DNA of 64,000 nucleotides from Hormiphora californensis (Eukaryota > Animalia > Ctenophora), in NCBI GenBank assembly GCA_020137815.1, contig CM035357.1, positions 8,122,001-8,186,000 on the forward strand. The letters are read 5' to 3'. The translations under genes were made by a program, and so were the position numbers. Shown here in pieces: positions 1 to 54,202 of the stretch (its first letter is position 1; every line of letters starts with the position of its first letter). The notes below the pieces were generated by a model, which worked only from the letters and a program-made list of their open reading frames with translations, had not been told where the DNA came from and did not search any database.

Positions 1-2244
1 CTGATATCAGCAAGCGGGAGCATGTACCTTATGGCTAACGCATCTTTGAACTCCTGCTTGTTCAGGACAAATCCATACTCTCTGATGGGCAGAGTGGTGA
101 GCCAACTAGAAGTTCCCGGCTGCCTGAGATCTTCAATTTGGCGTCTGAGGGGTCCATCGACTTCGGAGATAATATTCTCTAGTTTTTCCAGTGATTCTTT
201 TTTCTTGTTCTTGGATATTTTCTTGTGTTCTTCGTTCATTTCTTCTTGTTGCTCTGCCCATTCCACATCGTTTATCTCAAGTTTTTGTTGAATGATATTT
301 TTGACTTGAGACGGGGGGGGGGGGGACATGTTAATTGTTAATAAATCACCTCTTTTTTTCGATTTTGTTAATTAACGTTAATTAACAAAATTAACAAAAT
401 TAACAAATGCTAAAAGACTGTTCTTATTGGTTAATAATACGACTTTAACTGGTTTAATTTTATAGTTTAATGAATTATCTAACACATATATACCCAAACA
501 AGGCCTTTTCCGATAACCAAAGTCCGACATACAGGTTTTTTGGCTCAAAATCGATAAAATTCCAAAAGTTACAAATATTTCAATTTAGCGTATAAAATCT
601 CACTCTAACGTAATTTTTAAATTGGTAATCGATTCTTTGGACGTAATAAGATGATGTACAACGTTTCTGTTGAAAAAAGAAATAAAATTTTCCCAAAATC
701 AATTTTTTGGTCAAGGATTGAAAATTTGCTTCGCTACAAATCCTTGTGTTTTTTTAGAAAAATTGATTTTTGGGATATTTTTCGTTTTAAGGTAAATTCA
801 TGAGTCTTATTTAGTTTTTAGGATGCGAAAATGTGGATTAGTGTCATTTGACTTCAAATGCGGTTTAGTTTGGCTAGTATTTATTAACATCCATATAATA
901 AATTCCATAATGTTAGTCAGTCTGTCCGTTAATTGGTTTTTCAAACTCCTCCCACAGTTTTTGAGCTAGACCCCTGAAAATTTGTACACTGGTACCTTGG
1001 ACCAAGGCGGATGTAAGTACGGGCTCAGATTTTTGATCCGATCTTTACAGCAGTGACGTCACGGGGTGACGTCATTGCGACAAAAAGACTTACATTTTTC
1101 AAACGCTTCTAAGACCCTGAAAACGGCTCTAAATCAAAAAACTAACGCAATAGTGGGGAAAGAGAATCGTTTGAACTTCATTTCCCGTAACTCAATGTTT
1201 AAGGGTCGTAAATCGCGTCGGGAAAGTTAAAAATGCCAAAAATACGATATTTTTCACCGTAGCCACCCAAAATCTTATCCAATCGATATGAAACTTGGTC
1301 GTTATGTGAATTTTAATGTCCTTTGGCCAGGGGTTCCCGGAAAACGGATTGGCAAGATGAGAACTGACCGGAGTTCTTATATAATAAATTAATTCATGGT
1401 CAACACGAAACGCAAAAAGTTTCAAAAAGGTGCGGATTTTTAAAAATAAATTGTTTCCAAATAAAATGCAAAGAAATCGCGAGCGCGCGGCAGTTGTTTG
1501 CACCGTTAACTACAAAAAGACTGCGTGCCCCATTTAATTTGTCCGGTTGAACTGAACATGTTTGCGCGCAATATTCACTCACTGCGTATAGTGGGAGACA
1601 CTAGCGTGGTACGCGCAAAAAAATGCGCGCCACACACCTGTTATTTAAGGTATGTGGCGCGCATTTTTTTGCGCGTATAGTCGAATTTTTTAATCAAGGG
1701 ACAGGGGCCGCGCATTTACAAAAGTCTTTTTGCGCGTGCTAAACGTTTTCGCTCATATCTCCTGTTCCTGATAAGATAAAGACTTGATCTTGGATGCGTT
1801 GAAAAGGTCTTAAAATTATCTTTCCAACGCTTTCGGGTTCAAGTCTTAAGATTGCCAGGAACTTGATCTCGATTATCACGCGCAAATACAAAGCCGTGCG
1901 ACCCCTCTGAATGCGCGGCCCCCTGTCCCTTGATTAAAAAATTCGACTTTACCACGCTAGTGTCTCCTACTAGTAGTGTGGTCATCGCGCGTTCCCGACA
2001 TGTATCGAGCAACGTGGGCCAAAATGGGGCGAGAAATCAGAGCGCTTCTGTGTTTATCACAAAAGTAAAAAACATAAATTTAATGGGGCAAGTAAATAAA
2101 TGTGAAACAAGTATAAAATTCAGGGTTAAAACTTAGGATATTTCTCGTCTGTCTCAACTTCTCTTTCAAAAGCAAACTGATTGACAAATTGTCTCGGTTC
2201 TCTTTTATATAATATCTTTATTCCAGAGTCTTTCCAGTAATCTA

Positions 2245-2400
2245 TCAGTCCATGATGGTTCTGCGGTGATACAGATCGGAGGTTACATCACACAGGGGAA
2301 GAGTGGCAATGATCTGTGTTGTGTAAACTTTGACAAGTGGGCCTGCATGTCAATGGAACTGGTGTATTTCGTCTCCACCAATTGGAATGCTCCCTCGCAC
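2245..2400 (-). pseudogene. MAD1: MAD1 (mitotic spindle checkpoint) terminal exon, captured copy with frameshift
   Basis: Acceptor ctccag|g. Translates CEGAFQLVETKYTSSIDMQAHLSKFTQHRSLPLF, then after a shift at the G4 run (2295-2298) LCDVTSDLYHRRTIMD*. This matches the MAD1 C-terminus pattern (QLLETEF...SIPAFLSSLTLELFSRQT). Confidence 0.75.
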
Positions 2401-2681
2401 CTGGAGGAGAAACATAATTAATATCGGGATTTAATACGAAAACCAAAGAAAACGAATTTAATAAATTAATTTAGTAGGGAATTTTGAAAATTTAATAATC
2501 GTGAGCCCGTTAAATCAGGGTGTCCAGTAAATCAGGGTCAAATACTGTTAATTTCCTATATATGGGGGCGGGGGAGGTTATATCAGGGTCCGACTGCATT
2601 ACTCTTTGTTGATTAACTCCCCGTTCATCCACTAAGTTTTGTGAGAAAATATAATAAGTAACTAACTCGATCCATACTAAC

Positions 2682-2806
2682 TTCTTGAAGAGAAGATTGT
2701 GAGTTGGTGATTCAGCATAGAGAGATACAAGAGAGAACTGTGAGTCCTCGGGGCACGAGAGGGTGTATCCAAACATGTATTCAACATTCTCCTTTAATTC
2801 ACGGAT
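2682..2806 (-). pseudogene. MAD1: MAD1 penultimate exon, captured copy
   Basis: Acceptor tttacag|, donor aa|gttagt. Translates IRELKENVEYMFGYTLSCPEDSQFSLVSLYAESPTHNLLFK, resembling the MAD1 C-terminal domain (GYQI..QYRLTSLYAE..LIFK). Its phase 2 end matches the next exon. Confidence 0.8.
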
Positions 2807-4311
2807 CTGTAAATAGAGAGTATTTAGGGTGTTTAGGGTGTTCAGAGTGTTCAGGGTGCAGTGTTCATGGTGTTCTATAGTGGGTATATTATTATAGTAC
2901 ATGCCCGTGTCGTATTCAGTTCACAGTTACGCTTTACTTCAACGGGTTTTCTAGTTTACAAAATGGAATAAATCGCTGTAGAAAAGCCGTAATAGAGGTA
3001 GTAGGGGTATGTAAATCGTACAGAATGAACAACTTTGCTCGCAGAACAAGTGTTAAATACTAAAAATACGTGCTAAAGGGGATTTAGATGACATAAATGG
3101 CATTTGTTAACGTTTGTTAACTTTTTGTTAATTTGTTAATAAATCACCTGTTTTCTCGATGTTAATATTAACAAAGTTAACAAAATTAACATGTCCCCCC
3201 CCCCTTGAGACGTTGTAGCATTTTTCGAAGCTTGAAATTCTCTGGTCGAGATTTCCACTGGATCAAAAATGTTGAGTCCTGTGTATTTTGTCGGAAGCTT
3301 TGTTATTTCCCTGATTAATGTGTTGACTGGACGTCCAAATATCCGTGGGATAAACACTTCGTTAATGCACTTTTCTAGTGGCTCAAACTTTTCCTTGACA
3401 TTAGGTGTTGTTCTCATCAGAAAAAGCCATTGTTTAGAAAGCGCAAATGTGTAAGCAGCGTAGGCTCCTTGCGGATTTGTGAGCGCCACCTCGCTCAGAT
3501 TTTTCAGATCCTCGATCCATGTTTTGATTTTGTCTTCCACAAATGTTTCCACGAAGGCATCTGTTCCAATTGCTGTTCCCAAATACCTCTGTCCCTCTGT
3601 TGTTAAATTGATCTCTGTTTCCCCAAATATCTTTTCTGCGACTTCCAAGTGTTCCTTCTTTACTATCAGCCACGACTTCTTAGCATTGGGGAAATATCCC
3701 AGAGCAGGTCCAATAACGTTAATCTTGTCCCACCATTTCCTCAATTCTGCCAATCTTCCACTAGCGGAGCTGTCATCTGCGAACCACGTCTGCCTACACC
3801 TGCACTCGGCCAAATCTCTAACCAAAGCTACCGTGCTAATTGAATAAAATGCCGAGGCTAAGTTGCACCCCTGAGTGGTGCCTTCTAATGACATAATAAA
3901 GGACCCATCAAATAATATCAATTTACATGGGCTACGATAAAAATTAATAAGAATTATCGAAAAAACTGGGCATAGGTATCTCATGTTAGCCAACGCAGTA
4001 ACTCGATTTAAACAATTAAATGCGTTAGTGGCATCTACTAGAATTAGACCCTCTGTTTCGTCATCTTCGAACATTTCTCTCACGGCATGTGCGGCTGCTT
4101 CTACACCTGATCTCTGGCCTGCACATAACTGCAGCGGACCAGCTGCCTGTTCAATATCTCTCTTTAAATAAGTACGCACACTTTTACCTATAATACGTCT
4201 CATAATCTCGCCAATTCCAATAGGTCTAACACCTGGTTTCTTGTCTAATCCTATCAATCTACAAGCTAATAATGATTTAAGAGTCCCTGTATCAACAAAT
4301 TCAACGCATAA

Positions 4312-4597
4312 CACGGCGTCATACACATTTTTATTTGGAATTTCTATCTGGAGTTTCTATTTGGAATTTCTATCTAGAAGAACCGCACGTGCAGATGCGC
4401 CGCGCCGCGGCTCATATTCACGTGCGAGATTAAAGAGAGAGACGCACATTAACGTTATACGATTGTCTCTCACTCTCTCTGAAAAAACCGCACGTGCAGA
4501 TGCGCCGCGCCGCGGCTCAAATTCACGTGCGTGTTATACAGATTCTGACAGAAATTACGAGCAAGAAACTCCAGGTAGAAATGTGTATGACGGACTG
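4312..4597. mobile_element. MITE inserted in the CRE RT ORF
   Basis: Imperfect TIR cacggcgtcatacacattt / cagtccgtcatacacattt, TAA (or TA) duplication. Removal restores the R-R-L-C codons. Internal ~46-bp direct duplication at 4381 and 4487. Confidence 0.85.
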
Positions 4598-6496
4598 TAA
4601 TCGTCTCGTCATCCTTGCTATAGCTTCGCTCAGTTCGTTCGTACTGTTGCCAAAAGATTTCGATGTCAACATGCGTCTCCATAGATTGTTATCCATCCCA
4701 CTTGGTCCGCACCCTCCTTTAGTATACATTGCTGCCCTTCGTATCCTCCCTCCATCAAGTTGCTCAAATGTTCCAGGTTCGACTGTTGGGTGCATCGCGG
4801 TTGATACTAATCGTTCTACAGCAATTCTCTGGGCCGGTGGATGTTTTTTCTTCAGTTCGTCTATCAGTTGAGGTGTTACTTGCAGTGGGCCTCCTTGTGC
4901 TGTTCTGAGTAGTCTGAGAGCTGCTGCCACTCTCCCTACCAACATTAGTCTTGAGAATGCAAGATTAGTGTCGGTTTTGTTTCCTGCTGTTGATGAGTTT
5001 AGCCTACCCTGAATGGCAGTGGCTTCTGATAATAGCTGATAAAACTGCCCATCTTTCCATTTTTCCAATCTTTTGGTCAAGAGGTCAAAGTGATCTTTGT
5101 GTTTACTGTTTTTTCGCGGTTTCTGTAACAGCAAAGCGCCACTTACATGAATGGCTGTTAGAGCGATACCCTGTAGATCAGTTTTGTCCGTCCATTTATC
5201 ACATAAATCTTTGATCATCTCAATGTAGTCCTTTCCAGCCTTACCATTGGGTAATGTAAACAAGTTAGGTCGGAAAGAGGACACCTTCTCGTGAATTTCG
5301 TTGAGTGTTGACTCTAGGTTGCCTTGAAAATTTCCCCACTTTAGCTCAATTTTTGTAGTAACTTTGTCAAAAGATGGAATCTGTCTGCAAGTGATACATT
5401 CCCAGTGTGTTCCGTACCCTTCCGATGTTTTTGAATGTTGCATCGTTGATGTTAGCACATTTGCAATGAAACCACAATTGACACCCATCACATTGGACGC
5501 CGTTGTCTACTGTTTTACTACACTCGGGACATTTTTCCACTGACTCCATGTTGTTTTGTGAGTCTTGGTAGATATCTCCTAGCAGATCCATTAGTTGGGC
5601 TTTCTTCATTCTCTGCGAGTACTGGATTCCATGTTCATCTAGTAGAGCCCGAATTTGATTTAATTCCTTCAGTCTTGTTCCACTCATTATCGACAGAACA
5701 AGAATAACTGCATTATGTTTCATAATGCTATGTTTCCCCGCCAACCTTTATTTTCATAACCATCTAATGTGAAGGCGGGACAGACATTTCCGATCATTTA
5801 TGAATCACTCAAACCGTATAGAACAAATCTTTGTGTTTTAGTAGCACTAAATTGTGTGCCACATTGCGCGGCTCACATTTCCTGAAAACGTGCCATTGAA
5901 GTATTTGATGAAGGAGCAACACTGTTGTCCCTCGCAACTGAGCGGGTTACGTTACATAAAAAGCGTGACACTTCACTAGTATGTAAAATAAAATTGTCGA
6001 ATTCTAAACCCCTATGCCTTTTTACAAAAGGCATCCGGGTGAATGCCTTCGGCATTCACCGGGCGGGGAAAAAATTTTGTTGAGAATTCTCAACTAATTG
6101 TGGATGTGAATGTTTAGATCAACATATGATCTTAACGTCAGTAGACAGTGCTCCTTCATAAAAAAATTTATGTGACCAAAGCTGTTAAGCTGTTACTCCC
6201 ACTATTTGGAAGTTCTATATTGTTTTAGAACAAAATTTAGTGATTCAGTCCCCATAGTTACCGTTTCAGTTGACATGGCAACCATAATTTTAAATTTAAT
6301 AAAGAGCGCCATCCACGATATCGAATTGGAAAAGTCACGCTTTTTAATTTGTGAAAAATTTGAAAACTACCTGACTTTAAAGTGAGAGTGGACCGAATCA
6401 GAAGTGGACAAATTTGTTGTAGGTAGTGGAGATAAGCTTTCTGAGCATTTTGCGTTTTTACCTCTCAAAATCGACCCACCCATCACTGAGATATTT

Positions 6497-9400
6497 GGTA
6501 ATATACCAATTCTTGGTGTTCGAAGAAAATAGCGCTAATTAGCGGTTTTAATAGCGCTAATTAGCGCTAATTAGCGCTAATTAGCGATAGCGCTATTTAT
6601 CGATAGCGCTAATAGCGCTAATAATAGCGCTATTTCACAAAATAGCGCTATTTTTGACCGCTAATTAGCGCTAATTAGCGATCAAAAATAGCGGTAATTA
6701 GCGGTAGCGCTATTTTAGCGCTTTTTGTAACCGCTAATCGGGCAATTTATCTAAAAAAATAGCGCTATTAACACTTACAAAAATAGCGCTAATTAGCGCT
6801 AATTAGCGCTAATTAGCGCTATTAACATTCTTAATTCATTTTGTTCGAACCGCTAATTAGCGCTATTTCCAATTTCATCAAAATATAGAAAACGCTATGA
6901 TTGGATAATGTATGTCACGTGACAAAAATCCTGTCATGTGATGAAAAATAGCGCTAATTAGCGCTATTTTTATAATCGCTAATTAGCGCTATTATCAACT
7001 TAAACGTTTATTATTTTGTTAATGGCGCTAGTTAGCGCTAATTAGCGCTATTAATATTTGCAAATAGCGCTAATTAGCGCTAATTAGCGCTAATTAGCGC
7101 TAATTAGCGCTAATTAGCGCTAATAAGCGCTAACTAGCGCTATTTGCATATTATTAATAGCGCTAATTAGCGCTAATTAGCGCTATTATCAACTTGAACG
7201 TTTACTATTTTGTTAATAGCGCTAATTAGCGCTAATTAGCGCTATTAATGTTATGCAAATAGCGCTAGTTAGCGCTATTTGGAAAATATTAATAGCGCTA
7301 ATTAGCGCTAATTAGCGCTATTATCAACTTAAACAGTGATTATTTTAATAATAACGCTAATAAGCGCTAATTAGCGCTATTATCAACTTAAACGTTTATT
7401 ATTTTATTAATAGCGCTAATTAGCGCTATTAATATTTTGCAAGTAGCGCTTGTTAGCGCTAATAAGCGCTAATAAGCGCTAATAAGCGCTAATAAGCGCT
7501 AATAAGCGCTAATTAGCGCTATTTGGAAAATATTAATAGCGCTTATTAGCGCTAATTAGCACTATTATCAACTTAAACGTTTATTATTTTATTAATAGCG
7601 TTAATAAGCGCTAATTAGCGCTATTAATATTTTGCAAATAGTGCAAGTTAGCGCTTATTAGCGCTAATAAGCGCTAACTAGCGCTAATTAGCGCTATTTG
7701 GAAAATATTAATAGCGCTAATTAGCGCTAATTAGCGCTATTATCAACTTAAACATTGATTATTTTATTAATAGCGCTAATAAGCGCTATTGATATTTTGC
7801 TAATAAGCGCTAATTAGCGCTATTTGCATATTATAAATAGCGCTAATTAGCGCTTATTAGCGATATTATCAACTTAAACATTTACTATTTTATTAATAGC
7901 GCTAATTAGCGCTATTAATATTTTGCAAATAGCGCTTATTAGCGCTAATAAGCGCTAATTAGCGCTATTTGGAAAATATTAATAGCGCTTATTAGCGCTA
8001 ATTAGCACTATTATCAACTTAAATGTTTATTATTTTATTAATAGCGCTAATTAGCGCTAATTAGCGCTATTAATATTTTGCAAATAGCGCTAATTAGCGC
8101 TTATTAGCGCTAATAAGCGCTAACTAGCGCTATTTTTAAAATATTAATAGCGCTAATTAGCGCTTATTAGCGCTATTAATAAAATAGTAAACGTTTAAGT
8201 TGATAATAGCGCTAATTAGCGCTAATTAGCGCAATTAATAATATGGAAATAGCGCTAATTAGCGCTTATTAGCGCTAATTAGCGCTAACTAGCGCTATTA
8301 GCAAAATATTAATAGCGCTAATTAGCGCTTATTAGCGCTATTAATAAAATAGTAAACGTTTAAGTTGATAATAGCGCTAATTAGCGCTAATTAGCGCTAT
8401 TAATAATATGGAAATAGCGCTAATTAGCGCTTATTAGCGCTAATTAGCGCTAACTAGCGCTATTTGCAAAATATTAATAGCACTAATTAGCGCTTATTAG
8501 CGCTATTAATAAAATAGTTAACGTTTAAGTTGATAATAGCGCTAATTAGCGCTAATTAGCGCTATTAATATTTTGCAAATAATGCTAATTAGCGCTAATT
8601 AGCGCTTATTAGCGCTAACTAGCGCTATTAGCAAAATATTAATAGCGCTAATTAGCGCTTATTAGCGCTATTAATAAAATAGTAAACGTTTAAGTTGATA
8701 ATAGCGCTAATTAGCGCTAATTAGCGCTATTAATAATATGGAAATAGCGCTAATTAGCGCTTATTAGCGCTAATTAGCGCTTACTAGCGCTATTAGCAAA
8801 ATATTAATAGCACTAATTAGCGCTTATTAGCGCTATTAATAAAATAGTTAACGTTTAAGTTGATAATAGCGCTAATTAGCGCTAATTAGCGCTATTAATA
8901 TTTTGCAAATAATGCTTATTAGCGCTAATTAGCGCTAACTAGCGCTATTAGCAAAATATTAATAGCGCTAATTAGCGCTTATTAGCGCTATTAATAAAAT
9001 AGTAAACGTTTAAGTTGATAATAGCGCTAATTAGCGCTATTAATAATATGGAAATAGCGCTAATTAGCGCTTATTAGCGCTAATTAGCGCTTACTAGCGC
9101 TATTAGCAAAATATTAATAGCACTAATTAGCGCTTATTAGCGCTATTAATAAAATAGTTAACGTTTAAGTTGATAATAGCGCTAATTAGCGCTAATTAGC
9201 GCTATTAATATTTTGCAAATAATGCTTATTAGCGCTAATTAGCGCTAACTAGCGCTATTAGCAAAATATTAATAGCGCTAATTAGCGCTTATTAGCGCTA
9301 TTAATAAAATAGTAAACGTTTAAGTTGATAGCGCTAATTAGCGCTAATTAGCGCTATTAATAATATGGAAATAGCGCTAATTAGCGCTTATTAGCGCTAA

Positions 9401-12400
9401 TTAGCGCTTACTAGCGCTATTAGCAAAATATTAATAGCACTAATTAGCGCTTATTAGCGCTATTAATAAAATAGTTAACGTTTAAGTTGATAATAGCGCT
9501 TATTAGCGCTAATTAGCGCTATTAATATTTTGCAAATAATGCTAATTAGCGCTTATTAGCGCTAATAAGCGCTAACTAGCGCTATTTTTAAAATATTAAT
9601 AGCGCTAATTAGCGCTTATGAGCGCTATTAATAAAATAGTAAACGTTTAAGTTGATAATAGCGCTAATTAGCGCTAATTAGCGCTATTAATAATATGGAA
9701 ATAGCGCTAATTAGCGCTTATTAGCGCTAATTAGCGCTAACTAGCGCTATTAGCAAAATATTAATAGCGCTAATTAGCGCTTATTAGCGCTATTATTAAA
9801 ATAGTAAACGTTTAAGTTGATAATAGCGCTAATTAGCGCTAATTAGCGCTATTAATAATATGGAAATAGCGCTTATTAGCGCTTATTAGCGCTTATTAGC
9901 GCTAATTAGCGCTAACTAGCGCTATTAACAAAATATTAATAGCGCTAATTAGCGCTTATTAGCGCTATTAATAAAATAGTAAACGTTTAAGTTGATAATA
10001 GCGCTAATTAGCGCTAATTAGCGCTATTAATAATATGGAAATAGCGCTAATTAGCGCTTATTAGCGCTAATTAGCGCTAACTAGCGCTATTAGCAAAATA
10101 TTAATAGCGCTAATTAGCGCTTATTATCGCTATTAATAAAATAGTAAACGTTTAAGTTGATAATAGCGCTAATTAGCGCTAATTCGCGCTATTAATAATA
10201 TGGAAATAGCGCTAATTAGCGCTAATTAGCGCTAACTAGCGCTATTAGCAAAATATTAATAGCGCTAATTAGCGCTTATTAGCGCTATTAATAAAATAGT
10301 AATGTTTAAGTTGATAATAGCGCTAATTAGCGCTATTAATATTTTGCAAATAGCGCTAATTAGCGCTTATTAGCGCTAATAAGTGCTAACTAGCGCTATT
10401 TTTAAAATATTAATAGCGCTAATTAGCGCTTATTAGCGCTATTAATAAAATAGTAAACGTTTAAGTTGATAATAGCGCTAATTAGCGCTAAATAGCGCTA
10501 TTAATAATATGGAAATAGCGCTAATTAGCGCTTATTAGCGCTAACTAGCGCTAACTAGCGCTATTTGCAAAATATTAATAGCGCTAATTAGCGCTTATTA
10601 GCGCTATTAATAAAATAGTTAACGTTTAAGTTGATAATAGCGCTAATTAGCGCTAATTAGCGCTATTAATAATATGGAAATAGCGCTAATTAGCGCTTAT
10701 TAGCGCTAACTAGCGCTTTTAGCAAAATATTAATAGCGCTAATTAGCGCTTATTAGCGCTATTAATAAAATAGTAAACGTTTAAGTTGATAATAGCGCTA
10801 ATTAGCGCTAATTAGCGCTATTAATAATATGGAAATAGCGCTAATTAGCGCTAATTAGCGCTAACTAGCGCTATTAGCAAAATATTAATAGCGCTAATTA
10901 GCGCTTATTAGCGCTATTAATAAAATAGTAATGTTTAAGTTGATAATAGCGCTAATTAGCGCTATTAATATTTTGCAAATAGCGCTAATTAGCGCTTATT
11001 AGCGCTAATTAGCGCTATTAATAATATGGAAATAGCGCTAATTAGCGCTTATTAGCGCTAATTAGCGCTAACTAGCGCTATTAGCAAAATATTAATAGCG
11101 CTAATTAGCGCTTATTAGCGCTATTAATAAAATAGTAAACGTTTAAGTTGATAATAGCGCTAATTAGCGCTAATTAGCGCTATTAATAATATGGAAATAG
11201 CGCTAATTAGCGCTAATTAGCGCTAACTAGCGCTATTAGCAAAATATTAATAGCGCTAATTAGCGCTTATTAGCGCTATTAATAAAATAGTAATGTTTAA
11301 GTTGATAATAGCGCTAATTAGCGCTATTAATATTTTGCAAATAGCGCTAATTAGCGCTTATTAGCGCTAATAAGTGCTAACTAGCGCTATTTTTAAAATA
11401 TTAATAGCGCTAATTAGCGCTTATTAGCGCTATTAATAAAATAGTAAACGTTTAAGTTGATAATAGCGCTAATTAGCGCTAAATAGCGCTATTAATAATA
11501 TGGAAATAGCGCTAATTAGCGCTTATTAGCGCTAATTAGCGCTAACTAGCGCTATTTGCAAAATATTAATAGCGCTAATTAGCGCTTATTAGCGCTATAA
11601 ATAAAATAGTTAACGTTTAAGTTGATAATAGCGCTAATTAGCGCTAATTAGCGCTATTAATAATATGGAAATAGCGCTAATTAGCGCTTATTAGCGCTAA
11701 TTAGCGCTAACTAGCGCTTTTAGCAAAATATTAATAGCGCTAATTAGCGCTTATTAGCGCTATTAATAAAATAGTAAACGTTTAAGTTGATAATAGCGCT
11801 AATTAGCGCTAATTAGCGCTATTTATAATATGGAAATAGCGCTAATTAGCGCTTATTAGCGCTAATTAGCGCTAACTAGCGCTATTAGCAAAATATTAAT
11901 AGCGCTAATTAGCGCTTATTAGCGCTATTAATAAAATAGTTATCGTTTAAGTTGATAATAGCGCTAATTAGCGCTAATTAGCGCTAATTAGCGCTATTAA
12001 TATTTTGCAAATAGCGCTAATTAGCGCTATTTTTAAATTGTCTATGGCGCTGATCAGCGCTATTAACAAAATATACATTCATTATTTTGTTAAATGCGCT
12101 AAATAGCGCTAATTAGCGCTATTAACATTTTGCAAATAGCGCTAGTTAGCGCTTATTAGCGCTAATAAGCGCTAATCAGCGCTATTTGCAAAATATTAAT
12201 AGCGCTAATTAGCGCTTATTAGCGCTATTATCAACTTAAACGTTAACTATTTTATTAATAGCGCTAATAAGCGCTAATTTGCGCTATTAATATTTTGCAA
12301 ATAGCGCTAGTTAGCGCTAATTAGCGCTAATTAGCGCTAATAAGCGCTAACTAGCGCTATTTGCAAATTATTAATAGCGCTAATTAGCGCTAATTAGCGC

Positions 12401-13067
12401 TATTAACAAAGTAATATACATATATTGTGTTAATAGCGCTAATTAGCGCTATTTACAAATTGTTGATAGCGCTAATTAGCGCTAATTAGCGCTATTTAGC
12501 GCTTATTAGCGCTAGTTAGCGGTATTTTCATATTGTTAATAGCGCTAATTAGCGCTAATTAGCGCTATTTTGTTAATAAAAATAGCTAATCTTTAAGAAA
12601 TGGAGCTAATTAGCGGTTACAGATTTTGACCAATCATAAGGATTTATTTAATCACGTGATCAACGCCAACCAATCATGGCTTAGATACGTCAAATAGCGA
12701 TGTCTCTTAAATAGCGCTATTTCAAAATTTTTAGGACCGCTATTTGAATAGCGGTGTTATCAAATTTGAAATTAATACAAAATTTAGAACCGCTATTTTT
12801 CTACAAAAATAGCGCTATTTTTAAGTGCAAAAAGCGCTAAAATAGCGCTACCGCTAATTACCGCTATTTGTGACCGCTAATTAGCGCTAATTAGCGGTCA
12901 CAAATAGCGCTATTTTATAAAATAGCGCTATTATTAGCGCTTCTAACACTTTTTATAAATATCGAAATCTTTGATAGCGCTAATTAGCGCTAATTAGCGC
13001 TAATTAGCGCTCTTAAAATCGCTAATTAGCGCTATTTTCTTCGAACACCAAGAATTGGTATATTACC
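6497..13067. mobile_element. Merlin-like TIR element whose interior is a 6.5-kb TAGCGCTAAT satellite
   Basis: Perfect terminal inverted repeat GGTAATATACCAATTCTTGGTGTTCGAAGAAAATAGCGCTAATTAGCG. 8-bp TSD agatattt at 6489-6496 and 13068-13075. Confidence 0.85.
6530..13035. repeat. Palindromic 10-bp satellite (AATTAGCGCT)n with a ~155-175 bp higher-order unit
   Basis: Spacer aaaatagtaaacgtttaagttgat recurs at about 8181, 8347, 8511, 8677, 8841, 8997 and onward. It is in reverse orientation at about 7000-8050 and about 12230. Confidence 0.95.
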
Positions 13068-20893: not shown

Positions 20894-21745
20894 GGTAAGT
20901 CGGAAGAACCTGTCCGTTCCTCTCATGAGCGCTCATGAGTGTATCATGAGTGTGTCATGAGTGTATCATGAGTGTATCATGAGCGCTCATGAGACGTTTT
21001 TAGGTGTTTCAACGTCTCATGAGCGCTCATGAGTGTATCATGAGTGTGTCATGAGTGTATCATGAGCGCTCATGAGTGCTCATGAGACCTTGCTCATGAG
21101 CGCTCATGAGACATATGTCTCATCCCATCTCTGTTTCAATGTCTCATGAGCGCTCATGAGACGTTTTGACCTACATGTGCTCATGAGTGTATCATGAGAC
21201 ATGTCTCATGAGACATATGTCTCATGAGACGTTAGGGTTGGGTTTACGGTTGGGCTAGGGTTAGGGCTTTCCTTTAGGTCTAGGGACCCGTAGAGGGTAG
21301 GGCTAGGTCCAAGCCTATGGGTCAACCCTAACCCTATCCCTACGGGTCCCTAGACCTAAAGGATAACCCTAGCCCAACCGTAAACCCAACCCTAACCCTA
21401 ACCCTAACGTCTCATGAGACATATGTCTCATGAGACATGTCTCATGATACACTCATGAGCACATGTAGGTCAAAACGTCTCATGAGCGCTCATGAGACAT
21501 TGAAACAGAGATGGGATGAGACATATGTCTCATGAGCGCTCATGAGCAAGGTCTCATGAGCACTCATGAGCGCTCATGATACACTCATGACACACTCATG
21601 ATACACTCATGAGCGCTCATGAGACGTTGAAACACCTAAAAACGTCTCATGAGCGCTCATGATACACTCATGATACACTCATGACACACTCATGATACAC
21701 TCATGAGCGCTCATGAGAGGAACGGACAGGTTCTTCCGACTTACC
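20894..21745. mobile_element. Merlin-like foldback MITE (CTCATGAG-rich arms, TTAGGG-like spacer)
   Basis: GGTAAGTCGGAAGAACC...GGTTCTTCCGACTTACC with ~340-bp arms; 8-bp TSD gtgaaaat. Confidence 0.9.
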
Positions 21746-25317: not shown

Positions 25318-27054
25318 GGTAAGTCGGAAGAACCTGTCCGTTCCTCTCATGAGCGCTCATGAGTGTATCATGAGTGTGTCATGAGTGTATCATGAGTGTA
25401 TCATGAGCGCTCATGAGACGTTTTTAGGTGTTTCAACGTCTCATGAGCGCTCATGAGTATATCATGAGTGTGTCATGAGTGTATCATGAGCGCTCATGAG
25501 TGCTCATGAAACCTTGCTCATGAGCGCTCATGAGACATATGTCTCATCCCATCTCTGTTTCAATGTCTCATGAGCGCTCATGAGACGTTTTGACCTACAT
25601 GTGCTCATGAGTGTATCATGAGACATGTCTCATGAGACATATGTCTCATGAGACGTTAGGGTTAGGGTTAGGGTTGGGTTTACGGTTGGGCTAGGGTTAG
25701 GGTTATCCGGTAAGTCGGAAGAACCTGTCCGTTCCTCTCATGACCGCTCATGAGTGTATCATGAGTGTATCATGAGTGTATCATGAGCGCTCATGAGACG
25801 TTTTTAGGTGTTTCAACGTCTCATGAGCGCTCATGAGTGTATCATGAGTGTGTCATGAGTGTATCATGAGCGCTCATGAGTGCTCATGAGACCTTGCTCA
25901 TGAGCGCTCATGAGACATATGTCTCATCCCATCTCTGTTTCAATGTCTCATGAGCGCTCATGAGACGTTTTGACCTACATGTGCTCATGAGTGTATCATG
26001 AGACATGTCTCATGAGACATATCTCTCATGAGACGTTAGGGTTATGGTTATGGCTGGGTTTAGGGTTGGGCTAGGGTTAGGGCTTTCCTTTAGGTCTAGG
26101 GACCCGTAGAGGGTAGGGCTAGGTCCAAGCCTATGGGTCAACCCTAACCCTATCCCTACGGGTCCCTAGACCTAAAGGATAACCCTAACCCTAGCCCAAC
26201 CGTAAACCCAACCCTAACCCTAACCCTAACGTCTCATGAGACATATGTCTCATGAGACATGTCTCATGATACACTCATGAGCACATGTAGGTCAAAACGT
26301 CTCATGAGCGCTCATGAGACATTGAAACAGAGATGGGATGAGACATATGTCTCATGAGCGCTCATGAGCAAGGTCTCATGAGCACTCATGAGCGCTCATG
26401 ATACACTCATGACACACTCATGATACACTCATGAGCGCTCATGAGACGTTGAAACACCTAAAAACGTCTCATGAGCGCTCATGATACACTCATGATACAC
26501 TCATGACACACTCATGATACACTCATGAGCGCTCATGAGAGGAACGGACAGGTTCTTCCGACTTACCGGTTATCCTTTAGGTCTAGGGACCCGTAGGGAT
26601 AGGGTTAGGGTTGACCCATAGGCTTGGACCTAGCCCTACCCTCTACGGGTCCCTAGACCTAAAGGAAAGCCCTAACCCTAACCCAACCCTAAACCCAACC
26701 ATAACCCTAACCCTAACGTCTCATGAGACATATGTCTCATGAGACATGTCTCATGATACACTCATGAGCACATGTAGGTCAAAACGTCTCATGAGCGCTC
26801 ATGAGACATTGAAACAGAGATGGGATGAGACATATGTCTCATGAGCGCTCATGAGCAACGTCTCATGAGCACTCATGAGCGCTCATGATACACTCATGAC
26901 ACACTCATGATATACTCATGAGCGCTCATGAGACGTTGAAACACCTAAAAACGTCTCATGAGCGCTCATGATACACTCATGATACACTCATGACACACTC
27001 ATGATACACTCATGAGCGCTCATGAGAGGAACGGACAGGTTCTTCCGACTTACC
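25318..27054. mobile_element. Merlin-like CTCATGAG foldback MITE containing a nested copy of itself
   Basis: GGTAAGTCGG...CCGACTTACC; the outer flanks differ, so there is no TSD. Confidence 0.85.
25709..26567. mobile_element. Nested Merlin-like CTCATGAG foldback MITE
   Basis: 8-bp TSD ggttatcc at 25701-25708 and 26568-26575. Confidence 0.9.
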
Positions 27055-30596: not shown

Positions 30597-31032
30597 GGTA
30601 AGTCGGAAGAACCTGTCCGTTCCTCTCATGAGCGCTCATGAGTGTATCATGAGTGTGTCATGAGTGTATCATGAGCGTATCATGAGACGTTTTTAGGTGT
30701 TTCAACGTCTCATGAGCGCTCATGAGTGTATCATGAGCGTATCATGAGTGTGTCATGAGTGCTCATGAGACGTTGCTCATGAGCGCTCATGAGACATATG
30801 TCTCATCCCATCTCTGTTTTAATGTCTCATGAGCGCTCATGAGACGTTTTGACCTACATATGCTCATGAGTGAATCATGAGACATGTCTCATGAGACGTT
30901 AGGGTGATGGTTAGGGTTGGGTTTAGGGTTGAGCTAGAGTTAGGGCTATTCCTTAGGTCTAGGGACCCGTAGAGTGTAGGGCTAGGTCTAAGCCTATGGG
31001 TCAACCCTAACCCTACCCCTACGGGGCCCTAG
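30597..31032. mobile_element. Half copy of the CTCATGAG Merlin-like MITE, truncated by a CR1 insertion
   Basis: Left arm and part of the spacer only. Confidence 0.8.
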
Positions 31033-31035
31033 GCT

Positions 31036-32600
31036 TAACTGCAGTAGCTTGGCATACTCGATTTGGATGTTGTGGAACAGGTCATTTGAAGACGGATCTG
31101 TCCCTAGTTGCTTAAAGCAACAGTTCATAACACCGTTATTCAAGAAGGGGGCTAAATCGAAACCTGTGAATTATCGCCCAGTGTCTATAACAAGTCACCT
31201 GTCTAAAGTGTTTGAGCGGCTGGTGAGGAAACGGATCAGTGACTACTTGGACGAGATGGAGTTGCAGAGTGACACACAGCATGGTTTTAGGAAGGGGCAC
31301 AGTACCATGACACAGCTACTAACCCATGTTGACATCATCCTATCTGAACTATGCGGTGATCAGGAAGTCGATGCTATCTACTTAGATTTTAGTAAAGCAT
31401 TTGATTCCGTGGATATCAATGTTCTGCTAGCTAAATTGAGGCGATATGGTATTGGAGGTCAACTCCTTCAGTGGATCAGTGCGTGGATCCTGGGCAGGAA
31501 TCAGTGTGTAATGGTGGATGGAGTGAGGTCACCCTGGGTTGAGGTACTTAGTGGGGTTGCCCAGGGTAGTGTGCTCGGACCACTTCTTTTCCTCATATAT
31601 ATTCTTCACCTGGAGTCAGTGCTAGACGGTAGCATGTGTCTAACTTTTGCTGACGATACTAAGTTGGTAAAAGCTATTTCGGATATGACTAGCCAGGCGT
31701 GCCTACAGAACGATCTTTTAAGAATGGCAGAATGGGCAAAGAAGAACAATATGAAGTTACATGAGGATAAATTTCAGCTCTTGAGCTATAGTCTGAATAA
31801 GTCTGCTATCCTCAGACAGTTTCCTTTCGCAGCTGAAGTGTTTTCATATACTACAAGCTCAGGTGTGCAGTTGATCCCCGAACCTGATGTTCGTGATCTG
31901 GGTGTCCAGATGTCTTCAGATGGGTCATAGACGAGGCACATTTCTATCATAGTGCGGAAGGCTTCCCTCTTGAGTGGCTGGATATTCAGCGTTTTTCGGG
32001 ACCGTTCTCCGGAGGTTATGGTGCAGCTTTTCAAGTCCTTGGTCAGGCCTATTCTTGATTACTGTTGCCTAGTCTGGAACCCTTCCAAGGCTGGTGATAT
32101 CAAGGCTATTGAGAATGTCCAACGTTGTTTCATCAGACGTCTTGATGGTATGCAGGGTCATGACTATTGGGATAGACTGAAATTACTCAATCTTCCTTCA
32201 GCGTCGGAGACAGCGCTACATTCTGATTCATGTGTGGAAGACGATTCATGGTTTTGTACCTAACTCTGCCAACCTAGTATTTCAACAGCACGGTAAACTG
32301 GGTATGCGGATAGTCCCACCACCTTACCCCTATAGAGCAGAAACGAAACGAGCTAATCAATTTCACTGCTCATTTGGTCCAAGAGCAGCTCATTTATGGA
32401 ACACTCTACCAGCTGCTGTCAATTCTTGTGTGAGCATGAATCAGTTCAAATCATCATTGGGCAATTACTTGACAGGATTTCACGATCGTCCTCCAGTCAG
32501 AGGGTACCCGCCACTTCCAAATGACCTTTCGCCTCAATGTGCTGTGCTGTGCTGATGAGTGTGAGTGTGAAGGGATAGTTTTTCAACTTAATTTTATTTA
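31036..32600 (+). mobile_element. 5'-truncated CR1-clade LINE (ORF2 reverse transcriptase), inactivated
   Basis: NYRPVSITS, QHGFRKG, YLDFSKAFDSV, SGVAQGSVLGPLLFLIYI, FADDTKL, SLVRPILDYC. In-frame TAG at 31928-31930 and a frameshift near 32195. Confidence 0.92.
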
Positions 32601-34753: not shown

Positions 34754-35792
34754 TCCCTAATTATAAAGTAGAAATGAACGTCGTAGTGAGGAGCAGGATG
34801 AAGTAACCACGTGTGCAAATGAGGGGGGTTGTCAAGGAGGTGCCCTGGGAGGGGTATGGGAGGTTGCACGTGCGGGTTGGTGCAGCGGGTGAGAGGGGCC
34901 CGGTGCCCAGATATTGCAAATACCCAAGAGATAAATGCCCTTAATTTGGCAGCAAATTAAAGGCGAGGCAGCATATTGGACAAGCTGCCTAGTAGTCAGC
35001 AGTTCAATAAATATCGCTGTCGGCAGTAATAAATGTAGGGGCCATTTAGATAGTTTTAAAAAAAGTGTCCCACCCGGGATCGGTCGGGAATCGAACCCGG
35101 GTCTCACGCGTCAGAGTGGAGGCAGCACAGGCAGCGCAAATTTACCCCATATTTACATAGAAAATTTAGCCTCATTTTATGCAATATCAGTTTTACTTTT
35201 CCGGCTATTATATTCGAAGAAGTATTCCAAACACGAATATGAAGGAAATAAACAAATTGAACGTCACAAATTTTCTTAATCTTTCTGCTGCCTCGGGTAC
35301 CATTATTTACCGATTTTTTGGCTATTCCCGCCCTTCTACCCATCCAATTTGGTAATATTCGGTGCAGGGACATCCACAGTATCGATAAACAAGTGCCTAA
35401 ACCGATAAACGGGGAAAAACGGTAAAACTTAGCATGATATAGAAGGCAGCATGAGGCAGCACGTATTTAGCTTAATTAAGATAGATCCGTGCTGCCGGCA
35501 GCACGAGTTCGATTCCCGACCGGGCCCGGGTGGGATAATTTTTTTAAATTTTTTTCAAACTTTATAAATGATTTATAAATGATTTCTAAAAACTTTCTAG
35601 ACATTTATTTTACTAGGCAGCAAAATCGTCGATTTTTGAGACAAAGTTGGCAGCATATTTGACTTTTGAAAATCGTATTTATCTAAAATTTTGAAAATCC
35701 GGGCACCGGGGAGAGGGGTGCTCCTGGCCCCTGGGTGAGGGAGAGTGTGGGGATTTGGGTCAACGGGTGCTCTACTTCAACGGGCTTTCTAG
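34754..35792 (+). mobile_element. Helitron-like element in COLGALT intron 1
   Basis: A|TCCCTAATTATAAAGTAGAAATGAACGTCGT ... CAACGGGCTTTCTAG|TC; 5' end similar to 39535. Confidence 0.55.
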
Positions 35793-38932: not shown

Positions 38933-39334
38933 AGTTTTGTTTTTTTCCCTGAAAATTTTGTTTTTTGTCCACGCTCTAAATAGTCCACTATCTTAGAAAA
39001 GAAATTGAGAAAGAACGTGGGACTTAGCGTCCTCGCATTAGTGGGGGTAGGCGCTGGAATTAGGTCTCTATCTCATCTTACTACATATATATAATGCGAA
39101 AAGAGCTGAAACTTGATCCCCCTATGCATGTGATGAGGGACCGACGAGGGTCCCCAATTTTCCCATCATCAGCTGAGATCACATCATCCCACATGCATGA
39201 TCAGATCACCCCACTGAGGATCAGATCACTCACCCAAGATCAGATCACCCCACCCATGATCAGATCACCCCACTGAGGATCAGATCATCCCAGTGAGTAT
39301 CAGATCCCACATTTCACCCATTGTTCCACTGAGA

Positions 39335-39335
39335 C

Positions 39336-39368
<33 letters not shown>

Positions 39369-39389
39369 TAGAGGGGAGAGAGAGAGAGA

Positions 39390-39475
<86 letters not shown>

Positions 39476-39485
39476 AAGAGAGAGA
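39335..39485. repeat. (GA)n microsatellite
   Basis: Visible directly. Confidence 0.95.
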
Positions 39486-39534
39486 TATCAACGGCCGGTT
39501 CAACTAACGGGGTCCAACCAACGGGCTTTCTAGT

Positions 39535-39993
39535 TCTTATCATAAAGTACAAATGAACGTCGTGAAGGTGATGATGTAGTATCCCACGTGCAAATAGAGG
39601 GGGGTTTTGGGTACGGTGCGTGATAACATGAGACTGAGAGAGACAGCGCAGGAGGATAGAAGAAAGAGGGGATATCATACCCAAAGGGGGGTTGCGGGGG
39701 GATACTGCACGTGTATGTTTTTGGTTGTTTGTTACGTGTTCCTGTGGTGTTTAGTGGTGATTTGGGATCTACCGCCATGATTGCCAATGCCTTTCTACCT
39801 ACGTACCCCGTTGATTCTCTACACAGCTACAATTCTACGGATCTTTATCACCTGATTCTACATGTTATTCAGCGGGATTTCCCTTGATATTTATGACCAG
39901 CGCTCCCCGACATGGAGAGACAAAGAGTAAGAGGGGGAGAGAGACATAAGACGGGTGGGGGGCTGTTGTAGGACTTAACAATGGGCTTTCTGG
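39535..39993 (+). mobile_element. Helitron-like element, in tandem with a preceding CTAG end
   Basis: TCTTATCATAAAGTACAAATGAACGTCGT ... ATGGGCTTTCTGG|T; the last ~90 bp match 62661-62756. Confidence 0.55.
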
Positions 39994-48300: not shown

Positions 48301-49366
48301 TAAATGGGAGGTAGGGTATCTGAGAGATGGAGTAAATGGCAGGTAGGGTAGCTGAGAGATGGAGTAAATGGGAGGTAGGGAAGCTGAGGGATGGAGTAAA
48401 TGGGAGGTAGGGAAGCTGAGAGATGGAGTAAATGGGAGGTAGGGAACCTGAGAGATGGAGTGAATGGGAGGTAGGTAAGCTGAGAGATGGAGTAAATGGG
48501 AGGTAGGGTATCTGAGAGATGGAGTAAATGGCAGGTAGGGAAGCTGAGATATGGAGTAAATGGGAGGTAGGTAAGCTGAGAGATGGAGTAAATGGGAGGT
48601 AGGGAAGCTGAGAGATGGAGTAAATGGGAGGTAGGGAAGCTGAGAGATGGAGTAGATGAGGAGTAGGGTAGCTGAGAGATGGACTAGATAAGGGGTAGGG
48701 TAGCTGAAAGATGAAGTAGATGAGGGGTAGGGTAGCTGAAAGATGGAGTAGATGAGGGGTAGGGTAGCTGAGAGATCGAGTTGATGAGGGGTAGGATAGC
48801 TGAGAGATGGAATAGATCAAGATCAAGAAATATTTGATTCGGCACCGACCCTCTCTCTACTCCTCGATGTTTCCCGCCATGTTCTGCAGCTGCTGTGTGA
48901 GAGTTGAACGCGAGCGCGTCAATAACATGACACGACATGCAACACGACATGCGAGATGCGAATTTCATTATTTTGAAGTTTTGTGGGGTTGCGATTTTTG
49001 TTTTAGGTCGGAGAGTGAAACGGCCGGTACAGTGGTAAACTAGATTAAAAACTGTACGCCTCATTAGACGGCGATTTTTCCTATCTTGTCTGGTTCCTGA
49101 GATATGGCCCCCTAAAGAGTTGGTGTCTCAAACTGCTGAATCGGGGTCACGCGAGGAAAATGGGCATCAGTTTGCGTGTACTGCTCCGTTTTTCACGGGA
49201 CTTGAACGAGGGTGACGGCAAGAGTCTCACCTATTACATGGTATCCTTACATTGTGTATTAAATCTAAAATGACTGAGCAGCATGCTTGTTAATGAACCT
49301 TGACGTGTTTGCTTGTCTCGCAAGCGCGCTCGCGACTAGCAAACACGACATGCAGTTCACACCCTG
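45360..49366. mobile_element. 4-kb foldback element with ~730-bp TIRs and an inverted 32-bp minisatellite core
   Basis: CAGGGTGTGAACTGCATG...CATGCAGTTCACACCCTG flanked by tatac on both sides. The minisatellite tcccatttactccatctctcagcttccctacc switches strand at about 47575-47595. Confidence 0.9.
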
Positions 49367-53210: not shown

Positions 53211-53792
53211 TGTCTTAGTAGTCATACCTCTTCCCCCTGCAAACCTCCCAATACTTTGTCTATATTGCTCGGCGCAGATCAGTTTGGTACGTGTTATTGG
53301 GCATAGTTGTAACCACATGGCTTGAAGCGACCGTTTTTAGGGTGGTCTGGAGCACTATGTGTCCGGGTACATTTTGGCGCCAAATCCTCCAACCCGTACT
53401 CTATGTCTAAAATCCTAACCCAACCCAAAACCTAACCCTAACCCTAACCCTAACCTCGAACCCAAATAACGGCCCTAACACTTCTAAATTAGTATAGGGG
53501 TAGAGCAAACTCTCGTTTCCGGCCTAACGGCCGAACTCTCAAGTTCGCGGCGAAAGGCGGACTCTCTATCTAATTTAGATTTATGTAGATATGTATAGAG
53601 TCCAATTTGTTTAGACTTTTTAGATAAAGAGTCCACCCTGTGTGGACTTTTTAGATAAAGAGTCCTCCTAGAGTTTAGAATTATTTGGACTCTTTATCTA
53701 AATCTAAATTTAGATATAGAGTCCACTGTAGACTTAGAGTGTAGCACTAGAGTCCGCACACCGGTTTACCCAATCTACCTATAAACCTACAG

Positions 53793-53931: not shown

Positions 53932-54202
53932 GCAAGTTATTATTAAAATATTCGGATTGGGTCATAAAAAGGCCCTATGATTGACATAGTTCGAGGCACT
54001 CATGAAAGCCATGGTTGTTGACCTGAAGTGAAAACTGTGAATCCAAGGGATCGCTGCTCCCCAATGACAGCAAGTGGGTGGAAGTACGAGAGTGCATATA
54101 ACACAAACACACTCGCAAAAACCTTTCCATGCAACCATTCAAATGCATGGCGGTCTGTCGATATGAACTTGAGCATTGGTGACAATTGCATGCTTTTTCC
54201 AG

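Follow-up and report, generated by a model that had tools for sequence, protein, structure and literature searches.

The last two coding exons of a MAD1 gene, together with the intron between them, lie within a mobile element in the ctenophore Hormiphora californensis. The element occupies positions 890-2954 of the analysed stretch of 64,000 nucleotides (the window), where it was placed between an A and a T with no target duplication. The cargo is genomic MAD1 DNA, comprising an exon, an intron, an exon, untranslated region (UTR) and part of the preceding intron. The element is likely to be Helitron-like, which is not to say a canonical Helitron. We think it probable that this is a non-autonomous Helitron-like element whose cargo, the last two MAD1 exons in reversed orientation, was copied as DNA and acquired by read-through past a weak terminator, and that it later moved again. 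Plants, bats and frogs are already known to undergo gene capture by Helitrons; the lineage is what is new here. No report of Helitron-like gene capture in ctenophores was found in the literature searched, although element libraries in paper supplements, Repbase or Dfam could hold these termini. With this case, the capture of genes as DNA by Helitron-like elements would reach a ctenophore, a member of one of the earliest-branching animal groups. Its limits are well defined, since each of three nested levels has its empty sites.

The captured MAD1 exons

Both exons are on the reverse strand. The second-last exon (2682-2806) and the last coding exon (2245-2400) are separated by an intron of 281 nt (2401-2681), which runs from GT to AG and contains two short interspersed repeats (2505-2567 and 2616-2648). 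Upstream of the second-last exon an AG acceptor is present at 2808-2807, within a captured part of the preceding intron (2807-2900, reverse strand) that includes this native acceptor. On the other side the captured 3' UTR contains an AATAAA (2217-2222, reverse strand), and UTR similarity to P. bachei P0003 extends to about 2204. The boundary between the captured DNA and the 3' terminus of the element lies somewhere between 2900 and 2930. The first-pass annotation had proposed these two exons with a GT-AG intron; the intron is as described, and protein matches identify the exons as MAD1.

The closest protein is P0003, which is identical to the second-last exon at 40 of 41 residues and itself scores 34 bits against the Pfam MAD family (PF05557, cut-off 30). 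The Mnemiopsis MAD1 protein (P0004) matches both exons (tblastn E-values 2e-9 and 3e-13), and P0004 and P0005 both pass Pfam MAD and match both exons. The second-last exon alone matches PF05557 with an E-value of 0.0094, which is below the cut-off, and the MAD1 exon matches the human MAD1 structure chains 4dzo and 7b1f. The last exon alone matched no Pfam family and no MAD1 structure, and was identified through the tblastn matches of P0004 and P0005. An HMMER library search gave nine matches, seven of which carry Pfam MAD (P0003-P0007, P0009 and P0011) and two of which are repeats. In a word-index protein search one of two candidates stood, P0003, the only match found in this way; none of 338 longer candidates matched, and the search at 43-139 residues gave no match. 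Scanning JGI metagenomes with P0003 gave 209 pattern matches, none of them confirmed, and scanning with the 5'-end motif gave none.

The last exon is frameshifted by two additional bases within the run at 2295-2298, and as a result the spliced frame stops early, at 2285-2283. Contigs from six of 22 runs were compared with the window, these being the DNA runs X1, X3 and X5 and the runs X12, X16 and X22. Each of the three DNA runs, and one RNA run (X12), has contigs from which the two extra bases are missing, so the frameshift is either private to the window copy or an assembly error. Compared with P. bachei, the shifted frame has 21 differences, of which 19 are at true third positions; the last exon requires no amino-acid change over 45 codons and the second-last exon differs at one of 41 residues. 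Since the differences are nearly all at third positions and the protein is almost unchanged, the capture appears recent. The RLK stretch of human MAD1 has a role in binding Bub1. The captured piece begins past the stretch that aligns with it, and an effect on the spindle checkpoint is therefore neither seen nor expected.

No upstream MAD1 exon was found within the 64-kb window by tblastn. In the gene model of a relative, an upstream exon is spliced to the same acceptor as precedes the captured exons; in the window the DNA upstream of them consists of a mobile end, an arm of a terminal inverted repeat (TIR) element and a reverse-transcriptase frame. That transposons merely accumulated around a MAD1 3' end still at its native place is scarcely credible. 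The almost unchanged protein and a frameshift that may be an assembly error would suit a native end, but 61 kb of the window lack an upstream exon, the upstream DNA is of the mobile kind just described and there are empty sites at three levels. The exons thus almost certainly lie away from their native locus, as had been argued. The further claim of capture as DNA rather than by retroposition is also upheld, because the intron is retained and there is no poly(A) tract and no target duplication. A retrocopy was rejected, as the intron and the upstream acceptor are kept and genomic DNA continues beyond the AATAAA.

Boundaries, nesting and class of the element

The inserted segment 890-2954 begins A/TC at 889/890 and ends CTAG/T at 2951-2954/2955 (the slash marks the boundary). 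Aligned contigs of X1 and X5 show the empty site, passing from 889 directly to 2955, with an A/T target and no duplication. The X3 empty site passes from 887 to 2955 with AA between, which is the same site with one substitution. Contigs without exactly 890-2954 occur in three of three DNA runs and in none of one presumed RNA run. The bounds put forward by the first-pass annotation are therefore supported by empty sites at both ends, and the copies of the surrounding TIR element (314-3203) without the segment, which it had suggested looking for, exist as precise empty sites inside TIR copies. Neither outcome that it had named against its reading was found: the boundaries are backed by these sites, and the MAD1 piece also occurs in other flanks.

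The element (890-2954, forward strand) starts with a highly repeated 5' part (890 to approximately 1376, forward strand) consisting of the TC start, an AT-rich stretch and a short GTCT repeat. Its repetition is seen from the variant contigs, which number 79, 22 and 10 at position 996 and 14, 1 and 1 at position 1435 (X1, X3 and X5 respectively). The 5' end reads TC-ATATAATAAATT, and a start like that at 890 in an X12 contig shares 27 of 30 letters with it. A second start-like motif, TCTTA-TATAATAAATT (1375-1390, forward strand), is a candidate start of an inner unit; the forward strand of the window has two occurrences of the start-like 11-mer, one at 894 and the other at 1380. Within the element is a nested MITE (1589-1972), whose inverted ends are 23 bp long and which is flanked by a GTA duplication of 3 bp (1586-1588 and 1973-1975), and for which three of three DNA runs contain the empty site from 1585 to 1973. 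The whole of 890-2954 holds one frame of at least 120 codons, over the MAD1 exon.

The element lies in turn within a TIR element that interrupts a non-LTR retrotransposon. The C-terminal part of the retrotransposon frame (3-304, reverse strand) is in frame across the outer element with the remainder (3213-5506, reverse strand), which contains the reverse-transcriptase domain and is itself interrupted at about 4317-4592, by a palindromic insert. Two weak Rfam microRNA matches in the palindromic MITE were rejected, being under their thresholds. Once 305-3203 is removed, the reverse-transcriptase frame is open over 485 codons. This frame matches Pfam RVT_1 with an E-value of 2.7e-4, below the family cut-off, and its best Atlas clusters are RVT_1 (score 0.97). 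The outer element (314-3203) is flanked by the 9-bp target site duplication CTTGAGACG (305-313 and 3204-3212; 'both' is 9 in X1 and X5 and 7 in X3), and the empty site from 304 to 3204 is found in three of three DNA runs. The description of a duplication-flanked TIR element splitting a retrotransposon frame is accordingly correct, and the order of nesting, from outside to inside, is retrotransposon, TIR element, Helitron-like element and MITE. The contigs of X22 cover the TIR arms only.

The outer element is non-autonomous, with poly-G ends and subterminal AATTAACAA repeats. Its inverted repeats are perfect over 21 bp (316-336 and 3184-3204) and the TIR is 28 letters long at 93%. Mutator-like elements, in common with Merlin, make 9-bp duplications, so the superfamily can be given as Merlin- or Mutator-like. 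Merlin elements are defined by GG ends, a TIR of 24-462 bp and an 8-9-bp duplication (PMC8101967), and the outer element has GG ends, a TIR of such a length and a 9-bp duplication. It also shares the internal tandem repeats described for Merlin; unlike Merlin it has no transposase. Four preserved Merlin ORFs are reported from P. bachei (PMC8101967).

The ends TC (890-891) and CTAG, a form of CTRR, and the insertion between A and T follow the pattern of HLE1 elements (PMC11417382). The terminus (2931-2954, forward strand) ends in CAACGGGTTTTCTAG, and its motif CAACGGGYTTTCTAGT has five matches in the window at up to two mismatches, three of them exact, where 0.09 are expected and 0 of 100 shuffled controls matched. 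Two of the other matches close elements that start A/TC (34754 and 39076). The termini therefore recur, the 3' motif five times in the window and the 5' end as a variant in X12. Two of the four other family ends are directly followed by TC, and a third by TTC and a start-like stretch. Head-to-tail junctions are a mark of rolling-circle transposition and are often imprecise (PMC5876387); possible junctions of this type are one X12 contig, imprecise by one base, and stacked neighbours with different bodies.

The short hairpin that precedes the 3' end of HLE1 elements is not significant at any of the five family ends folded. The folding z-score is -0.5 to -0.9 at the 2954 end, where a CCCGT/ACGGG stem of no more than 5 bp encloses a long loop, and -0.2, +1.7, +0.2 and -1.0 at the other four. 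Counting the 2954 site itself, 15 of 44 forward-strand CTAGT sites give folds that are as good or better. A lead only is the 9-bp hairpin found at 1357-1380. Its z-score is -2.3 for a 36-nt window picked after looking, which places it in the top 15% of element windows, and it is not significant in wider ones. No Helitron domain was present in the 13 frames scanned and a RepHel partner was not seen there. HLE2 (Helentron, DINE), for which short terminal inverted repeats and a T/T target would be expected, was rejected since the target is A/T and the 25 longest of 42 inverted repeats include none that convincingly pairs the ends.

We call the element Helitron-like, and do not present it as a canonical member, because the 3' motif is shared yet the hairpin is not significant. 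The identity claimed by the first-pass annotation holds for TC, CTAG, the A/T target, the missing duplication and the shared termini, but not for the canonical 3' hairpin. A mobile, MAD1-carrying element of some other class, inserting at A/T without duplication, would be compatible with the five hairpin-less ends and the missing link to a transposase. We consider this very unlikely, as TC, CTAG, the A/T target and apparent head-to-tail stacking jointly fit HLE1 and no terminal inverted repeats join the element ends (no convincing pair among the 25 longest of 42 inverted repeats). It is close to untenable that the outer TIR element captured MAD1 itself in the manner of a Pack-MULE. The cargo does lie between TIRs with a 9-bp duplication, but there are TIR copies without exactly 890-2954 and the cargo with its CTAG end is also found outside the TIR element, which largely refutes that route. 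The frameshift at 2295-2298, the MITE at 1589-1972, the non-significance of the hairpin and the start-like motif at 1375 were absent from the first-pass annotation.

Further copies and the origin of the cargo

The MAD1 and 3'-end unit is found in two further contexts, in RNA-run contigs of X16 and X12. These are environmental runs contributing one unstranded contig each, at a depth of about 4-5. The X16 contig has a different flank behind CTAG-TTTA and skips 2900-2807, a 94-nt GT-AG intron (joint 2803 to 2901 with AAT, depth 3.83); the skip is absent from the X3, X5 and X12 contigs. In the X12 contig the MAD1-linked 3' end is joined to the 890-like 5' end, at a junction where the G of CTAG is missing and which could instead reflect an insertion next to it. 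Both contigs carry another letter than the window at 2741, as does X12 at 2786 and X16 at 2804, and judging by such letters they may come from other populations or a sister species. The X16 flank could be native intron instead of a second insertion. The prediction of further MAD1 copies is thus borne out to the extent of the same piece with the same 3' end in other flanks, in one low-depth contig each.

A related copy likely gives spliced RNA. The sole splicing signal points to transcription in the MAD1 sense, opposite to the orientation of the element. A stop six codons upstream of the second-last exon precludes any in-frame fusion entered from the window copy's 3' end. The X12 contig ends at the acceptor 2400, the X16 alignment ends at 2680, followed by 5 more letters, and the native upstream-exon junction is absent in the RNA runs; these observations are compatible with splicing of element-derived RNA and prove nothing. 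In X3 and X5 the MAD1 contigs (depth about 700-2700) are deeper than the shallowest junction contigs (about 90-350), which is no more than a hint as to copy number.

In the sequence of events that we favour, a member of the family would have lain downstream of MAD1, pointing into the gene, and been copied by a RepHel transposase in trans. Copying would have passed through the MAD1 3' end and halted where a CAACGGG-CTAG end of the family type was reached. A second bypass would explain why an inner unit from 1375 appears to be fused head-to-tail to the 890-1374 unit. The three contexts of the MAD1/3'-end junction suggest that the loaded element was then copied to more than one place. At least one copy, to judge from one contig, would be transcribed from beyond its 3' end in the MAD1 sense and spliced from the GT at 2900 to the native acceptor. 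The MAD1-loaded copies are most likely young, neutral pseudogene fragments. In Helraiser, flank capture was about 12% with the hairpin in place and at least 36% once it had been removed (PMC4778049).

Gap filling would leave the same anatomy as read-through. It is possible, though on balance unlikely, that gap repair or template switching brought the MAD1 copy into a Helitron-like element that was intact beforehand, the last 30-55 bases being the old 3' end of that element. The terminus is indeed the family motif and not a random CTAG, and a low-depth X5 contig (record 21) follows 2838-2923 and then continues with 47 other letters, which could be native intron without the terminus. Donor genes in the survey of Thomas et al. 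(PMC4224331) had no related Helitron nearby in 26 cases and had one in three. Against this route, the joints listed (15 of 32) include no cargo-free parent with both ends, and the cargo is in unbroken genomic order almost up to the 3' end. An assembly chimera of repeats is a highly improbable source of the nesting. None of the contigs listed spans 889/890 or 2954/2955 with 31 letters on each side, and the window copy is unlike nearly all contigs at 2013, 2214, 2243 and 2490; yet the insert coincides to the base with the empty site, between an A and a T, the outer element has its 9-bp duplication inside an open frame, and an X3 contig (record 13, 2838-2955) joins the intron to the 3' end with no differences. 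Read-through remains the origin that we prefer. A bolder and rather improbable extension of it would be a currently active ctenophore Helitron group in which copying ends at the motif CAAYGGGYTTTCTAG rather than at a hairpin, with head-to-tail stacking and ready capture, and in which MAD1 copies are mostly in frame, transcribed and spliced, giving either a free MAD1 head-domain peptide or RNA that would pair with transcripts of the element and in this way act back on the checkpoint gene.

Comparison with known gene-capturing elements

Myotis Helitrons (HelibatN3 with NUBPL and the compound HelibatN539 with KCNQ5) are described with TC and CTAG ends, an A/T target, empty-site support, exons and intron captured as DNA, compound ends and spliced chimeric RNAs (PMC4224331, PMC4778049), and in these respects resemble 890-2954, with its apparent compound structure and likely spliced RNA. 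They differ in host, a bat in place of a ctenophore, and the present element has no significant hairpin. The captures described in Myotis favour promoters and first exons, whereas the cargo here is a gene 3' end, opposite to the element. In Xenopus laevis the HLE1 element Heli1Xen1 shows a comparable few-copy amplification of coding fragments, including a 3'-end capture from armc5.L that is present in 17 copies (PMC12001565). The same report gives 17 of 19 frog captures as 5' ends and a general bias towards the element's own orientation, in contrast to the reversed 3' cargo of 890-2954.

In maize, Hel1-331, -332 and -333 give spliced and read-through transcripts in which captured exons are joined into novel RNAs together with sequence from the flanks (PMC4528327), and maize Helitrons have been discussed in terms of epigenetic conflict (10.1101/777037). 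Unlike them, 890-2954 carries one gene, and splicing of a related copy is indicated by a single RNA-run contig. The hint of spliced captured copies goes beyond the usual captures.

Transposition without a 3' hairpin is described after hairpin deletion in Helraiser and for de novo Helibat ends, where it favours flank capture (PMC4778049), and for the hairpin-less ends of FoHeli group 2 (PMC5148889). FoHeli elements belong to HLE2 and carry asymmetric inverted repeats (PMC5148889); repeats of this type were not found at 890-2954. Unlike the hairpin-less Helraiser and Helibat ends, the family of 890-2954 shares a fixed motif that ends several unrelated bodies. This hairpin-poor, motif-defined 3' end, common to several elements, raises the question of whether sequence alone can terminate rolling-circle copying.

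Nested elements and their empty sites

The window opens with 5.5 kb taken up by four nested elements. A minus-strand reverse-transcriptase frame is interrupted by a terminal inverted repeat (TIR) element at 314-3203, which has 21-bp perfect inverted ends and a 9-bp duplication (CTTGAGACG). Within this outer element lies a Helitron-like element at 890-2954, with TC after A at its start and CTAG before T at its end, and inside that is a palindromic MITE at 1589-1972, flanked by a GTA duplication. The MITE's TAG ends and 3-bp duplication may resemble those of Academ elements. The outer element fits the published features of Merlin (PMC8101967). A Mutator-like element would be the alternative. Removal of the outer element leaves 485 stop-free codons, which bears out the first-pass annotation of a retrotransposon ORF split by a TIR element; the RVT_1 match of this frame is under the Pfam cut-off, and its best Atlas clusters are RVT_1. 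A second palindromic insert, at about 4317-4592, interrupts the same frame.

Boundaries were checked with contigs from six of 22 public sequencing runs. Contigs in all three DNA runs (X1, X3 and X5) lack the outer element (304->3204), the MITE (1585->1973) and the inner element, the last as 889->2955 in X1 and X5 and as 887->2955 with AA between in X3; contigs of X22, an RNA-guess run, reached the TIR arms only. The inner element therefore entered an A|T site without duplicating its target. The ends first proposed, A|TC at 890 and CTAG|T at 2954, are upheld by these empty sites, and the suggested copies of the outer element that lack 890-2954 are present in all three DNA runs. Some X1 and X5 contigs skip 1588->1974 or 1588->1975, part of them with GTA between; these variant skips at 1586-1975 look like MITE excision footprints.

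Elsewhere in the window are a satellite of about 6 kb based on TAGCGCTAAT, its higher-order unit being 165 bp long (6530-13011), two opposed arrays of a 32-bp unit (46153-48811; 45 and 38 copies, junction at about 47580) and a further reverse-transcriptase frame (30992-31930; RVT_1, E 2.5e-27). Short telomere-like TAACCC/GTTAGG runs lie at 21364-21408, 25655-25705, 26180-26230, 26670-26717 and 53414-53455, the first four within a family of TCATGAG-rich repeats. Two other frames match Glyco_transf_25 weakly (54022-54540, E 0.02) and DUF6451 (55487-55993, E 1e-6).

The MAD1 cargo

The cargo of the inner element is identified by sequence similarity as MAD1. The exon at 2806-2682 encodes 41 residues, 40 of which are the same in P0003, a Pleurobrachia bachei gene model. 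P0003 scores above the Pfam MAD cut-off, can be aligned with human MAD1 chains and has its upstream exon joined at the point matching the acceptor 2808-2807. Mnemiopsis MAD1 (P0004) matches both exons, with a frame switch at about 2298. By these matches the host is probably a ctenophore related closely to Pleurobrachia. The cargo is reversed relative to the element and includes a 281-nt GT..AG intron, the stop, AATAAA and downstream DNA, so that capture as DNA fits. The two exons and their intact intron are as first described, DNA-level capture is supported, and the kept intron and the DNA beyond AATAAA speak against a retrocopy. Short interspersed repeats in the captured intron (2505-2567, 2616-2648) have relatives at 13163, 13621, 16881, 33251 and 62109. 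Contigs also vary in the number of units of the short tandem arrays at 2826-2858 and 2917-2930, in the captured intron and the terminus; X3, X12 and X16 have additional units, and such differences help to distinguish copies.

Two extra bases at 2295-2298 end the spliced frame at a stop (2285-2283). X1, X3, X5 and the environmental RNA run X12 have contigs without these bases and none among the contigs listed carries them, so they are private to the window copy or an assembly error. This copy is also unlike nearly all contigs at 2013, 2214, 2243 and 2490. It is young and, as assembled, broken. The last MAD1 exon of P0003 is translated in the wrong frame, and the C-terminal half of that model is spurious. 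In the wrong frame 25 of 46 residues are shared and 19 of the 21 differences fall at true third positions; the true frame needs zero amino-acid changes against P. bachei. This bias and the lack of residue changes suggest that nearly all the divergence from P. bachei arose under selection, before capture.

Terminus, other contexts and capture

The 3' motif CAACGGGYTTTCTAGT has five matches in the window at up to two mismatches, three of them exact (0.09 expected by chance). One of the five is the inner element's own end. Of the other four, two close elements that start with A|TC (34754-35792, 39076-39533); TC follows immediately after two of these four ends, and TTC with a start-like stretch after a third. 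Another short Helitron-like element with this motif lies at 39535-39993, a further such end is at 62756, and head-to-tail stacking, in which CTAG runs into TC or into TTC plus an AT-rich start, is seen at 35793, 39534 and 62757. None of five family 3' ends folds into a hairpin better than shuffles, and the fold at the inner element's end is equalled or bettered at 15 of 44 CTAGT sites. What marks this end is a motif rather than a hairpin. The defining features of HLE1 are a TC start, a short hairpin ahead of CTRR and insertion at A|T (PMC11417382). The element is therefore Helitron-like and not a canonical HLE1 member: the identity first proposed stands for the TC start, CTAG end and A|T target, and fails for the canonical hairpin. 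HLE2 membership was rejected, its features not being found.

A 285-nt contig of the environmental RNA run X16 (depth 3.83) comprises 2680-2803, AAT, 2901-2958 and 88 letters of different flank. AAT corresponds to 2804-2806 bearing a silent substitution, so that the contig skips 2807-2900; on the minus strand this stretch runs GT...AG and ends at the native acceptor. The joint is absent in X3, X5 and X12; the contig is likely to be a spliced RNA that enters the element from beyond its 3' end. In the window sequence a stop lies six codons ahead of the exon, in frame from the 3' side, so this sequence gives no fusion protein. A 427-nt X12 contig (depth 5.23) carries unspliced 2706-2953, then a 5' end resembling 890 at 27 of 30 letters, the CTAG lacking its G. 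This junction would come from a tandem copy, a circle or an adjacent insertion. Head-to-tail joins are cited as a sign of rolling-circle copying, and roughly half of the circles formed by Helraiser had aberrant junctions (PMC5876387). The window, X12 and X16 would give three contexts of the loaded element, at most one native, the latter two from one unstranded contig each of environmental runs, where other populations are possible. Native intron could account for the X16 flank; an X5 contig (depth 150) that tracks 2838-2923 and then departs from the window is another candidate.

The highly repeated part of the inner element stops near 1376, with 79, 22 and 10 variant contigs at 996 vs 14, 1 and 1 at 1435 (X1, X3 and X5). 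A second start-like motif begins there with no CTAG ahead of it, which fits a fusion of two units: a first unit would have lost its end and been fused to an inner, MAD1-loaded one. MAD1 was probably acquired by read-through capture, though we hold this with some reserve. The main rival, gap filling into an element that was intact, is considerably less probable. Capture by the outer TIR element, within which the cargo also lies, is unlikely. It is also unlikely that 890-2954 is the native MAD1 locus; the 64-kb window holds no upstream MAD1 exon. None among the contigs listed bridges the window's own inner-element junctions, and an assembly chimera would be an unlikely source of the nesting.

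Comparison with known captures

Among the ctenophore transposable-element papers listed, judged by title, we found no ctenophore Helitron study. Our search, with most subscription papers, Repbase and Dfam outside it, found no report of Helitrons in Pleurobrachia or of MAD1 captured by a Helitron. Helitron gene capture is established in bats (PMC4224331), frogs (PMC12001565) and maize (PMC4528327). The suggested capture in another animal lineage is confirmed as an observation and supported as an interpretation; such events are already known, the lineage is new, the terminus is hairpin-poor and the evidence for splicing is weak. In the frog study 17 of 19 captures are of 5' ends (PMC12001565), whereas the inner element carries a 3' end, reversed, a less common pattern by that comparison.
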